From Lingula anatina (lineage: Eukaryota; Animalia; Brachiopoda), in assembly GCA_051362555.1 (NCBI GenBank), contig CM120640.1:5952001-6016000 (forward strand): a DNA stretch of 64,000 nucleotides. Reading direction: 5' to 3'. The notes under the pieces are model-generated. The model ran no database searches. It had not been told where the DNA came from and saw only the letters and a list, made by a program, of their open reading frames with translations. Of the stretch, positions 4,117 through 17,393 are shown in pieces. Position numbers and translations under genes: made by a program. How positions within the stretch are numbered: the stretch's first letter is position 1; each line of letters starts with the position of its first letter.

Positions 4117-7100
4117 ATGGCAATAGAAAAAATGACAAAACTGGCTTGGTGGTTATTATCGCTGCAATTGCTCATTGTGTCAGTATCAGCGGGTTTGGTG
4201 AACGTGGCTCTTAAAAAGCCCATCCGCGTTCTCCCGGAGAGCTCCACTTGCGGAATGAACTCTACTGGAGATTTAGCACACGCGTGTCTCGGAAACCAGT
4301 GCACACCATTAAGCTGTCCATCGCCGTGCACTTCTAGGTCTCAAGCGGAAACAGTTTTGTTGGATATCTCCAAGAGTGTGTCTCAAGCAATACGTGATGG
4401 GCGCTGTTCACAAGCCCCAAATCAAAGCAGCATTCAAACGAACAGGCAGCATTTGATTTTTGACGGGAATAACGCCTGTAGAGTTTCCCTTAACGGCACC
4501 TTGCCATCCTTCGTGAATGACGAGCTTTCGGTCTCCATGTGGGTGAAACACGGATTTACAATAAACTCACTACAGTAAGTTTTAGACTATACATTAAAGA
4601 CTGCAAACGGTTGAATGGTAGCCATATTTTGCAATATTTTAGTTAAAGTTACGTAACTTCTCATGCTTATAATAGTCTTAGTACTTTGGTCAGCTTGATG
4701 GCTCTTTGACGAAAAAATATAAAGTACATAAGTGGATGATATAAACCGGAGGATTCTGTCTGTTACCTGTTACCATAACTTTCTAAACTATTTCAGGCGT
4801 GAAGTAGTATTGCTGAACGCGTTTCAAAACATACCAGGCGATTCTTCGAAAATGATGTTTGCCATATCTTTAGTTCACAACGGAAATGAACATGTTCTTG
4901 CCTTGAAGCTTCGGGACTTAAATGGTGCAACCACTACTGGTTATTTTAGACCTGCCATCCAACCATTAGAATGGACTCACGTGGCCTTACAGGTACTGAT
5001 ATTAATAGGCCTACGGGTTATCTAACTTTATTAAGCGCGATTTTTGTTTTCAGAATAACATGATTTGTCAAATTTAGATAGGTTTTTGTCTTGTTTCCTC
5101 CTGCATTAAAAGGGCTCGCTTTTGCAAAAATGTATAAAAGTGAAAATGGTCACAACTGTGTAACTTTCATTTATAGCAGTGTATCAAAAATTATACTAGT
5201 TACATGTAAACAAGTGTAATTTTAGTTTAAGTACTACAGTGTATATATGTGATATCTTTACAAAGCGACGGAAATGAATATTCCCAACCTTAAAAGCAGT
5301 GTCTCCTGTATTGCCAGAAAATGTATTTTTAAATATAAATGCCATCTTTTGAAGAACATGATGTATAGCACCATGTGTTGCCTTGCATTGAATTTTCCAG
5401 GGTTATTCCGGGATTTACTCCATTTTCATGAATGGTACGGTAGCTTCCCCACGACTTGAACGAGTGACACCGAGAACGTATGCTGTTTATAGCTACTTTT
5501 TTGAAGTAGGAAATGTGGCAAGTAAGAGAGCCCAAATACTACATTTTTTAATTAGTAGACTTGTGAAAATGTACTTTATTGCCTCGAGAATGAAAAGAAA
5601 TTAACCTTTTACTTCAGTGCATAAATATACAGTCGATATACATGTAGCTGGAATCATGCTGCACCGTTAGGTAACGGTGTATAACAGATTGTTGAATGTA
5701 TGCAAATATTTTGTTTATGAACAACATGTGTCATGAAAGCCATCTTAAGAACTGAAATTAAACTAAATACAGTCCCTTAGCCCGGGGGAGGGGGTGTTCG
5801 GGGAGTTCGTAAGTACCATCCTTTTTGCCAGGAAGAAGTCCACTCTGGATAAAATTTGATCTCAGTACACGAAGGTGTCATGGTAAAGGGTCCTCTTATT
5901 TAGAGAAAGAAGCCGCTCTTTGAAGTCGCTGCCGCATTCAGCCAATATATTGATGCTTATCTTTAGATTCATCAATCACGACAACCCCAAACTGGGAGAT
6001 GCGCGACGTGCAAGTGTACAACGCTACACTAACAAACAGGTAATTAACTCTAATTGAAAGAATCATAGGCTGCATTCAGAACAGCGGACTAAGGGTGCTT
6101 TTCCAGAGATTTAGATCTATCTAAAGATTATGTTTTAGATCGACCTAACTCCCTGGGGGTTCAGGTTAAATTGCAGTCAGCCGAGCGGACACCATAGTTA
6201 ATTACCCCCTCACAGCTTTTAGTAGGTGGGACAGACGCTTAAGCCGGCCAAGCTGACAGTAATCTAGTGAGACTCCCCACAGGGATAGATCGATATAAAA
6301 ATCTATGGAAATGTGGTGTAATATGGCGACTGACCTAAGCTTGCCATCTAATCCGCTAATAGACACTGAATAGATTCCCCGTGGGAAAGTATTCAAGTGG
6401 GTCGGCCATATTTTACCCATGGACTAGTTAGCCACTGTTCTGAATGCGGCTATATACATCGTTGACATATATCCATTCCCATGCAAAATAAATATGTTTA
6501 TACACGTATGTGTACCAGCTAGTCAGTATACACACCCTGATAATTTTTGAGAGAATTAAAATAATTTATTGGATCGACACAAGAGGCCTACTAAGGGCTC
6601 ATTCCCAATGGAACTATCAGCCTATGTAGATCAATCCAACTACTCGGGGAGGGGGGCTTGTTGATTGCAATCATATTAAAAGATACACATGCCTCTTCTT
6701 GTTACCAACGTATTCAAGGCCAGGAGGGGAGGAGACGTTAATTTCTTGATCTGATTGCATTCAGCGACAGTCCCCGCGGAGAACGATAGTTTCATAGGGA
6801 ATGAACCCTAATAGATGATACAAGTCACATGTGTGTGTGAACATACTTGAATTTTCTGTTAGAACACGCATAAATGATTCACCCTGCACTTGAGATTCAA
6901 CAAATAATAGCGTTTAAATTTTACAAGTTGAAGTGAAGTGGACAAAACAAAAGACATTTCAGTATTTTATCGCTGTTATAAAATGATAGTCATGCGTTAA
7001 TCTAACTTGGGACACATTTCAGAGAAATCTACGCTTTGTACAAAAGCGCACCTGTAAAGGAGGTAGGACTGTACTATCCAACCTGCCGCTGCCCCCCTGA

Positions 7101-16100: not shown

Positions 16101-17393
16101 AATTGCCAAATTTATCTAAAATTGAAGATTTTTTTCACTTCAGCCATCACAACAAATGTTTTTTATTCATATTTAGGATAAATGCTTATTACATCACAAA
16201 GATTGCAGACTTTGGCCTGTCTCGTGACATTTTTGTGAAAGACTATTATAGGATGGATGACCAGGGCAAGCACCCTCTCCCTGTGAAGTGGATGGCACTG
16301 GAGAGTCTGACAGAGGGAAAATACTCTACACAGTCAGATGTGGTAGGACACAACAGCATTTCTTTCTTTTTTTTCACTTCTGAAGTATATTAAGTACCTC
16401 TGTAGTACATTTATACCAAATATTCTACAGATTGGAGAAAGTAAGAACAAAATCCAAAGGTGGGCCAAGAACAGAAATTTGGGGAGTTTGTTGCTGCCCA
16501 TAATGATAACAGCCAAAAGTGGAGAATCCTGAGATGATGGTGATGATGATATGTCATTCATAACAGCAGATTTTCATAATAAAGAGCCTAATTAAAAGTG
16601 CTCTAAAATTCAGGACACTCCCTGGAATAGTGAGGTACATTTAAAAAAACTCATTATAAAAATTACCCATATAGAGATTCCAGGTGAAGTTGGAATTTTG
16701 AATGATAGCATACTCTTCTTTTTAGTGGTCATTTGGCATAGTGCTTAATGAATTGTTAACAAGAGGGAAAACACCTTACCCACATGTGGACAATTATGAG
16801 ATAAAGAATTACATTGCATCAGGGAGAAGGCTTGATCCACCAGATTATTGCCCAGATGAAGTGTAAGAGATGCTTTTACACATATTTACTTGTCCATCAT
16901 TCAGATAATAGTTATTGATACATGTACATGTAATGTGCACAGTACTGTTTTAATGAAATTAAGTCTACATGGATGCTGACAATGTAGAATTATTTATTTA
17001 TGAATTATATTTTAAAAACATTAATGCAGCTTTAGTGGCTCTTTTATTAACAGTTACGAAAATATTGGATTTTGATCTCCCCTGTATAGTAACCTTTCTG
17101 TTCCCCTCAGGCGTGAATTGATGCTGAAGTGTTGGGCAGCAGACCCAGATGACAGGCCAACATTTACCCTGTTATCAAACAGACTACAGGAGATACTGGT
17201 GGACCAGGAGACTTGCAATGATTACAGTGGTTATCTTGCCATGGCGTCTGCTGTTCAAGAGGAAGCTTACGTGAACTCTGGTTCAAGCTCCTCTGGTTAT
17301 CTTAGTGTGGATGTTACACAGACCCTGCCAGAACCACATGAAAATCACTACTATAATGCAAAGATGACAAGCTTTGGCAAGATTCCTCACTGA
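4117..17393 (+). CDS. Chimeric receptor tyrosine kinase: usherin-type LamG-like/LN/laminin-EGF ectodomain + 3 IPT + TM + MET/RON-like kinase (23 coding exons, ~1343 aa)
   Basis: Hand-spliced exons, all GT-AG with consistent phases, total 4032 nt: 4117-4574, 4797-4992, 5401-5521, 5967-6039, 7023-7175, 7510-7627, 8001-8080, 8333-8530, 8796-9012, 10213-10434, 10721-10842, 11042-11227, 11790-11901, 12241-12543, 12855-13025, 13268-13505, 14078-14179, 14592-14675, 14911-15092, 15339-15448, 16177-16342, 16726-16862, 17111-17393. Signal peptide [45 protein letters not shown] followed by RRKQRQRRR. Kinase motifs [41 protein letters not shown]. Confidence 0.88.
6068..6451. mobile_element. MITE-like element, family A, in RTK intron 4
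   Basis: The left end GGCTGCATTCAGAACAGCGGACTAA is an imperfect inverted repeat of the right end TTAGCCACTGTTCTGAATGCGGCT. ATA flanks both sides (possible 3-bp TSD). The right subterminal sequence is shared with the element at 9022-9207. Confidence 0.7.
6595..6808. mobile_element. Tourist/PIF-Harbinger-like MITE in RTK intron 4
   Basis: TIRs GGGCTCATTCCCAATGGAACTATC and GATAGTTTCATAGGGAATGAACCC, with TAA on both sides (6592-6594 and 6809-6811), the typical PIF/Harbinger target duplication. Confidence 0.75.
9022..9207. mobile_element. MITE-like fold-back element, family A, immediately after RTK exon 9
   Basis: Imperfect inverted repeat of ~55 bp: GAGCACTCAGAACACCAGACTAACAGATTCCAAGATCAAATATGGCAAACC versus GGTTGGCCATATTTGATCTGGGGATCTGTTAGTCCGCTGTTCTGAATGTGCTC. 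The ends resemble those of 6068-6451. Confidence 0.72.
9795..9934. repeat. Diverged, left-truncated copy of the family B element
   Basis: AGATGGTCAGA...AAGTTTACA...AGGATGGATCAACAAAGATA...AGACTGTCAGAAAATA.CTCTGGATCC aligns co-linearly with 13565-13703. Confidence 0.75.
10721..13505 (+). other. Three IPT/TIG domains and transmembrane segment of the RTK (exons 11-16)
   Basis: IPT signatures [47 protein letters not shown]...[14 protein letters not shown]...IDIKGERL...[26 protein letters not shown]...[15 protein letters not shown], followed by the hydrophobic TM segment. This matches the membrane-proximal IPT stalk of plexins and MET. Confidence 0.85.
13536..13703. mobile_element. Short non-autonomous DNA transposon (CAGGGGCGGAT termini, hAT-like), family B
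   Basis: Termini CAGGGGCGGATT and GATCCGCCCCTG are inverted repeats. The internal sequence is repeated at ~9795-9934. No clear 8-bp TSD, so the superfamily call is tentative. Confidence 0.65.
14078..17393 (+). other. MET/RON-class tyrosine kinase domain and C-terminal docking tail (exons 17-23)
   Basis: [114 protein letters not shown]...RPTF. These closely parallel MET ([35 protein letters not shown]). The tail contains YVN. Confidence 0.92.

Follow-up and report, generated by a model that had tools for sequence, protein, structure and literature searches.

The stretch analysed here, hereafter the window, comprises 64,000 nucleotides (nt) of the brachiopod Lingula anatina (GenBank assembly GCA_051362555.1, contig CM120640.1, positions 5,952,001 to 6,016,000 of the forward strand), and all window positions given below are counted from its first letter. 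It harbours a gene for a receptor tyrosine kinase (RTK), which a first-pass annotation made from the sequence alone had read as a single 23-exon frame of about 1343 amino acids (aa). The gene model was rebuilt independently from the raw sequence and agrees with this reading: the frame runs on the plus strand from the ATG at 4117 to the TGA at 17393, all 22 introns have GT-AG ends, and the coding length of 4032 nt corresponds to 1343 aa with zero internal stops (Table 1). The predicted protein starts with a signal peptide (hydropathy 1.8-2.0 in windows at aa ~9-32) and has only one transmembrane (TM) segment (hydropathy peak 3.5), with 17 N-glycosylation sequons N-terminal of it. Pfam was run exon by exon and covered all 23 exons; no match to a Sema or PSI domain was obtained in any of them, and the same scan detects both domains in the adjoining gene, which bears out the earlier claim that the receptor has no Sema domain. 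The gene is confirmed as encoding a transcribed, Sema-less, single-pass RTK with a head of LN and laminin-EGF (LE) domains.

Table 1. Coordinates of the receptor gene and its parts in the window
Feature	Window position	Strand	Basis
Whole gene, 23 coding exons	4117..17393	+	GT-AG introns and open frame; RNA joints
Exons 1-6	4117-4574, 4797-4992, 5401-5521, 5967-6039, 7023-7175, 7510-7627	+	
Exons 7-12	8001-8080, 8333-8530, 8796-9012, 10213-10434, 10721-10842, 11042-11227	+	
Exons 13-18	11790-11901, 12241-12543, 12855-13025, 13268-13505, 14078-14179, 14592-14675	+	
Exons 19-23	14911-15092, 15339-15448, 16177-16342, 16726-16862, 17111-17393	+	
Signal peptide, aa 1 to ~25 with putative cleavage site	4117..4191	+	Hydropathy
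Exons 1-4 (aa ~26-283), N-terminus rich in Cys and LamG-like region, probable homologue of USH2A exons 2-5	4192..6039	+	Intron ends
Exons 5-8, usherin-type Cys motif and shortened LN, aa ~284-466	7023..8530	+	Residue matches, LN alignment
Exons 9-10, two complete LE repeats and a third with 6 Cys, aa 467-612	8796..10434	+	Pfam, Cys list, phmmer to laminins
Intron 10, 286 nt, phase 0, chimeric join between head and MET-type half	10435..10720	+	Spliced in 31 reads
Exons 11-16 (aa 613 to ~927), probably three IPT/TIG domains	10721..13333	+	Weak matches, motifs
TM helix, aa ~933-957, then basic stop-transfer stretch	13334..13408	+	Hydropathy; RTK TM-family matches
MET/RON-type tyrosine kinase, aa ~1015-1278	14078..17200	+	Pfam, PDB searches
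C-terminal tail with Y1291 (YxxM), Y1303 (YVN) and Y1330 (YxN), predicted SH2 docking	17201..17393	+	Sequence

RNA evidence for the join of head and kinase

Seven RNA runs of the same species were mapped to the window, X1, X2, X4 and X7 at 95% likeness and X7, X8, X9 and X3 at 80%. At 80%, splicing of exon 10 to exon 11 (10434/10721) was found in 31 reads (10, 9 and 12 in X7, X8 and X9, respectively), i.e. in three of the four runs, the fourth (X3) having 0 reads. Transcripts joining the two positions, for which the first-pass annotation had proposed to look as the main check on its reading, are thus present. The shorter side of the junction reads reaches up to 65-71 letters, and RNA depth is zero across the inner bins of intron 10. 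In the read mapping the junction appears as 10435 to 10724, two letters being placed between these positions; it is the identical splice, combined with a synonymous change in the codon that opens exon 11. At the same likeness, the joins of exons 11-12 (8, 17 and 18 reads in X7, X8 and X9) and 12-13 (9, 10 and 14 reads) follow, the join 13-14 is also present, and loose read ends fit the joins 9-10 and 14-15. The mapping at 95% adds the joins 1-2, 5-6, 8-9, 14-15, 18-19, 19-20, 20-21, 21-22 and 22-23; among the joints listed at 95%, besides which there are 21 more rows, none belongs to introns 2-4, 6, 7 or 15-17. At this likeness, the depth of X7 is similar over the two halves of the gene, with exons 10-11 uncovered. 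A full-length single molecule is beyond the proof of short reads; around the fusion itself, one joint follows the next without a gap.

Expression is patchy, with a depth of ~10-25x in three runs of one study and near zero in four others. Upstream of the ATG (window ~4030-4116), a non-coding exon is suggested by RNA depth that begins at ~4001 and by a pyrimidine-rich AG close to 4034. Interspersed repeats, likely small transposable elements, are located at ~6050-6450, 9010-9930 and 13530-13700, in introns 4, 9 and 16. In the mapping at 95% they attract many partial RNA matches, including some opposite-strand joints.

Two sets of RNA variants were considered, namely the best 40 of 106 in exons 10-14 (80% mapping) and 15 exonic ones among those listed of 265 (95% mapping); the filters differ between the sets, and the 95% filter under-counts divergent reads. 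The listed variants in the kinase domain comprise 8 synonymous and 1 non-synonymous change, while the best 40 of exons 10-14 comprise 22 synonymous and 18 residue-changing ones. No stop-making variant is among those listed, and the listed Cys codons are all conserved. The gene appears to be functional, its kinase being constrained and its ectodomain evolving fast. An in-frame insertion of 3 nt in exon 12 (11096) and several longer ends of exon 13 (11880-11901) mark a hypervariable spot in the stalk.

Parentage of the head, the stalk and the kinase

The first-pass annotation described the head as an usherin-type arrangement of LN, LamG-like and LE parts. The LN and LE domains were recovered, and the order was corrected, since the LamG-like region comes first, followed by a short LN and then by LE. 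The LamG-like region is assigned by its position and by motifs in exons 1-4 which we take to be of LamG type. Exon 6 has a weak F5/8-type Pfam match (E value 0.011), and the LE repeats are detected by Pfam EGF_laminin in exon 9 (E 3.7e-5) and exon 10 (E 1.6e-12). The third LE stops after six Cys, precisely at the exon 10-11 join. In the ESM Atlas, exon 9 resembles a generic laminin-EGF at 0.88 and exon 1 unnamed clusters at 0.83-0.84, matches which serve as leads only.

To compare the head with usherin (USH2A), its introns and residues were taken from published variant tables (PMC9399374 Table S2; PMC5688149). The former places human USH2A introns after c.485, 651, 784, 848, 1143, 1550, 1644, 1840, 1971 and 2167. 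Those of the receptor follow c.458, 654, 775, 848, 1001, 1119, 1199, 1397, 1614 and 1836. The first four share the phases 2, 0, 1 and 2 with USH2A and lie at most 27 nt apart, the one at c.848 being identical, and the chance of the four-intron phase agreement alone is ~1 in 80 by a hand estimate from phase counts. Further downstream, the receptor introns 1119 (phase 0), 1397 (phase 2) and 1614 (phase 0) match USH2A 1143, 1550 and 1971 in phase. Twenty USH2A exon-6 residues, which are those named in 60 of 137 'Exon6' rows and in further rows, were placed in four registers, two fixed by introns and two chosen by eye. Nine of them are identical in the receptor (E284, I285, C302, R303, P309, R334, H340, N346 and T352), three are similar and eight different. 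By hand estimate, nine of 20 at a background of 8% corresponds to ~1e-5, or to ~1e-3 allowing for the two by-eye registers, in a residue set which is biased because disease variants favour conserved sites.

The LN segment also aligns to the LN of a mussel laminin beta (z 3.8, equalled in 2 of 300 shuffles; z 11.2 when LE1 is included). The preceding part, aa 26-299, fails to align to laminin beta or gamma (z 0.9; local alignment), and the netrin/laminin layout, in which LN comes straight behind the signal peptide and the C-terminus is a C345C domain or coiled coil, is absent, since ~270 extra residues precede LN and a kinase follows at the C-terminus. Based on the intron positions and phases and the residue matches, the head is very probably derived from usherin, in line with the preference of the earlier annotation for usherin over netrin or laminin.

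In the stalk, exon 11 matches plexin IPT domains (E 0.003-0.02) and MET 661-684 (E 0.04-0.4) in a PDB search, the latter aligning to its aa 8-31. Exon 15 has a Pfam TIG match with E 6e-4 and 20.2 bits, marginally below the cut-off of 20.9. No relevant PDB match was obtained for exons 14 and 15, and a single-sequence fold prediction for exon 14 has a pLDDT of 35. Of the three IPT domains proposed previously, about three fit, on weak matches and motifs: there are space and motifs for about this number, not for the four of MET, and the first maps weakly to MET IPT2. In MET, IPT1 ends and IPT2 starts within the sequence encoded by exons 7-8, with exon 8 supplying the N-terminal part of IPT2 (PMC4469304). 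Because exon 11 matches the start of IPT2, the join is likely at a domain border, namely at the IPT1/IPT2 boundary of a MET-type parent. Alternatively, the stalk may be of Met-LP or plexin type. Cys653 in the first IPT (window ~10841-11043) is without evident partner; speculatively, it might permit a disulfide-linked dimer. The juxtamembrane region is short and lies within one exon (window 13506-14179), and the model has no separate counterpart of MET exon 14, the exon in which the Cbl site of MET resides.

The first-pass annotation had also claimed a complete kinase of the MET/RON class, and here PDB searches of four kinase exons and the intact catalytic motifs speak in its favour. The Gly loop (1022), K1048, E1066, HRD (1140) and DFG (1160) are all present, as are the tandem activation-loop tyrosines Y1172/Y1173. 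Pfam detects a tyrosine kinase in exons 18-23, with PK_Tyr in exons 19-22 (E 2e-11 to 3e-14). The best PDB match of exon 19 is MET (E 2e-11; MER 1.6e-9), and those of exon 22 are RON (8e-14) and MET (9e-13), followed by ROS (1e-10). For exon 21, MET and ROS tie and DDR ranks below MET; for exon 20, MET is the best single-domain match, the top row being a tandem EGFR construct. On full-length MET (7mo7_E), exons 19-22 match contiguously at 1120-1173, 1178-1210, 1216-1266 and 1267-1310, and end to end they span MET 1114-1312. Their sizes of 182, 110, 166 and 137 nt equal those of human MET exons 17-20. Thus, the assignment to the MET/RON class is supported, by a best-hit test rather than a tree. 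The tail carries YxxM and YxN motifs, which are predicted docking sites for SH2 domains and may represent the docking tail of the earlier annotation. The two-tyrosine site of MET as such is not present, Y1291 (YxxM) and Y1303 (YVN) differing from it in sequence and spacing.

The window is without a receptor paralogue or a remnant of either parent. Downstream of the receptor gene and tail-to-tail with it, a multi-exon semaphorin gene is located on the minus strand at ~19600-29700 (probably longer), with Pfam matches to Sema (E 8e-15 and 4e-11) and PSI (E 2e-7) and an Ig-like exon. Its C-terminus resembles those of secreted class 2 semaphorins. This class is reported to occur in protostomes, while Met is reported for Lophotrochozoa and not for Ecdysozoa (PMC6374515), which weakly points to a lophotrochozoan as the probable source. 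On the plus strand, from 56620 to ~63230, there is a carboxypeptidase D-like gene with repeated M14 domains (Pfam Peptidase_M14 E 5e-63 for the first).

Proposed origin and function, and related systems

The layout of the receptor, its splice join and its catalytic residues were observed directly. On this basis we propose a chimeric origin and a mode of action in which the ligand, the clustering and the output are conjectural. By exon shuffling, the first part of an usherin gene would have come to lie ahead of the exons for the IPT stalk, the membrane anchor and the kinase from a MET-type gene. About three IPT domains would hold out the LamG-like/LN/LE head, which would bind a multivalent ligand (presumably a partner in the matrix or on a cell surface, and not HGF), and this would cluster the receptors. 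The LN/LE part of usherin binds collagen IV and fibronectin. The clustered kinases would then cross-phosphorylate Y1172/Y1173, and the tail would recruit PI3K (Y1291) and Grb2 (Y1303, Y1330), so that the output would be MET-like growth or migration, while the input would be of the adhesion type. The head has since become shorter and drifts fast, so that it may by now bind another ligand than usherin does. We consider it probable that the receptor is such an usherin-MET chimera, signalling as a contact- or matrix-activated RTK. It is only tentatively suggested that it represents an undescribed RTK family of a lophotrochozoan lineage, which arose by intron-mediated usherin-MET fusion and wires the usherin head to a kinase in ciliated or sensory epithelia.

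Several observations weigh against this proposal. The junction reads are mostly 90-99% alike to the window, which points to divergent alleles or a close paralogue; coming from divergent animals or a paralogue, they are independent of the assembly, and the window's own allele is spliced in this way by inference only. Exons 1-4 are without any Pfam match, and at the register given by the adjacent introns none of 13 named USH2A residues of exons 3-5 matches. The receptor intron at c.1001 has no counterpart in human USH2A, and H340, N346 and T352 among the matched residues are general features of LN domains. The usherin parentage is deduced from introns and residues rather than from an alignment or a tree. 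By intron arithmetic, LN is ~50 aa shorter than that of usherin and about one LE unit is gone, and the binding properties of usherin may be lost in such a shortened head. The three IPT domains are weakly assigned and show no significant mutual alignment. Finally, Asn1212 (window 16747-16749) stands in place of the alpha-F Trp of MET/RON, which could weaken the kinase; at 95% mapping no variant row is listed at aa 1212, though reads cover 16746.

The strongest competitor, which we nevertheless regard as unlikely, shares the chimeric origin and differs in the present role of the head. The latter would now evolve fast as a module for immune, self/non-self or gamete recognition, with a ligand that is new and without any relation to matrix or cilia. 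This would be in line with the 18 residue-changing variants among the 40 best-supported ones in exons 10-14 versus 1 of 9 in the kinase domain, with the indels in exons 12-13, with the absence of detectable relatives of exons 1 and 14, and with the patchy expression in three runs of one study versus four near zero. However, the variant rows on which it draws are partial (the best 40 of 106, and 15 exonic of 265), divergent reads being under-counted by the 95% filter, and relaxed constraint on the stalk would yield the same pattern. Moreover, the window holds no tandem paralogue, and the Cys codons listed are all conserved.

Clearly less probable is a receptor in which the head merely serves as spacer or localiser and the IPT stalk is responsible for activation, whether through an HGF-like ligand, through association with the canonical MET or a plexin, or constitutively owing to the loss of Sema. 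HGF binds MET at IPT3-4 and the Sema domain autoinhibits, and both facts would fit this view, as would the apparently unpaired C653 and the semaphorin gene lying tail-to-tail. Further, MET with rearranged IPT1/2 is described as active independently of ligand (PMC4469304). On the other hand, the 590-aa head is transcribed with its Cys pattern preserved, no similarity to MET is detectable in exon 14, and adjacency of a semaphorin gene is no evidence of interaction.

That the head stems from a gene of laminin or netrin type or from some unknown LN-LE protein, and not from usherin, is very improbable. It is true that the search with the LE exon retrieved only a laminin beta, a laminin-gamma-like protein and a kringle-LE protein, that LN with LE1 aligns to laminin beta, and that netrins recruited LN-3EGF heads from laminins three times (PMC3516229). 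However, laminins and netrins lack the ~270-aa region before LN, which does not align to laminins, and the intron pattern (compared with USH2A only) as well as E284/I285 and C302/R303/P309 follow USH2A. An artefact, i.e. two adjoining genes or a mis-assembly, is hardly credible: beyond the origin of the reads from individuals other than the assembled one nothing speaks for it, and against it stand the 31 reads from 3 runs splicing 10434 to 10721, the continuous joints on either side, the length of intron 10 of just 286 nt, and an exon 11 without signal peptide.

The first-pass annotation considered the layout to be a new RTK architecture. Our literature searches, in which subscription papers are thinly covered, revealed no description of an LN/LE-IPT-MET kinase layout, and no orthologue was found in protein searches of low sensitivity. 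Exon 1 yielded 0 of 252 candidates and one match in 1.84 billion representatives, a repetitive protein of 3715 aa, which was judged spurious. Exon 14 yielded 0 of 22 candidates and exon 10 three of seven, none with a kinase domain, and a metagenome scan gave 3 kinase loci, none matching the ectodomain. Since the search with exon 1 missed even usherins, the negative outcomes of these single-exon searches are no sign of lineage restriction. It is quite possible, without being likely, that similar proteins already exist unnamed in invertebrate annotations. According to PMC8662651, a supplement of which (one file, figure-based domain lists aside) contains no laminin, usherin or Sema terms, ectodomain shuffling is widespread among the tyrosine kinases of holozoans. 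Thus, the swapping of ectodomains as such is known, also from Met-LP, and the receptor is not claimed as a new class.

The identification of this receptor is important for several reasons. It is a clear, RNA-supported case of exon shuffling, in which relatives of two major human disease genes were probably joined, usherin being a human deaf-blindness protein, and the join is narrowed to a single phase-0 intron. Further, it shows that a MET-type kinase can persist under selection without the Sema domain which defines its family. Usherin is conserved to cnidarians, with choanoflagellate homologues, and a review describes its basic role as yet to be uncovered (PMC3002383). If our proposal is true and the ancestral ligand is still bound, occupancy of the head would be read as tyrosine phosphorylation, which would make the question of the role of usherin directly testable. 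If true, the receptor would also be a natural reporter for ligands of the usherin head.

When compared with known systems, the receptor has a kinase closest to that of MET/RON and shares with them the tandem activation-loop tyrosines and the order of IPT stalk, TM and kinase, but it is without Sema, PSI and the first IPT and carries an LN/LE head; its juxtamembrane region is short and in one exon, its tail motifs differ, and the alpha-F Trp is replaced by Asn. With usherin it shares the order of signal peptide, LamG-like, LN and LE, matching introns and 9 of 20 exon-6 residues. Usherin continues with more LE, then with FN3 and LamG repeats, and has no kinase, whereas in the receptor the shorter LN and ~2.75 LE are followed by IPT and kinase exons in the transcript. 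DDR1/2, RTKs which are activated by extracellular matrix, are functional analogues, but have a discoidin ectodomain and belong to another kinase family. The Met-LP RTKs of Lophotrochozoa and Echinodermata, in which a plexin ectodomain is placed on a MET-like RTK and which reportedly arose twice by domain acquisition (PMC6374515, Junqueira Alves 2019), are likewise MET-like RTKs with an altered ectodomain; Met-LP has the full plexin ectodomain with Sema, while the receptor has neither Sema nor PSI. In netrin-1, netrin-4 and netrin-G, too, an LN and three-EGF head was taken out of a long matrix protein and provided with a new C-terminus (PMC3516229). They are laminin-derived ligands, secreted or GPI-anchored, whereas here a likely usherin-derived head is placed on a catalytic receptor. 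Thus, the receptor is a member neither of MET/RON, as it has no Sema, nor of the usherins, as it ends in a kinase.

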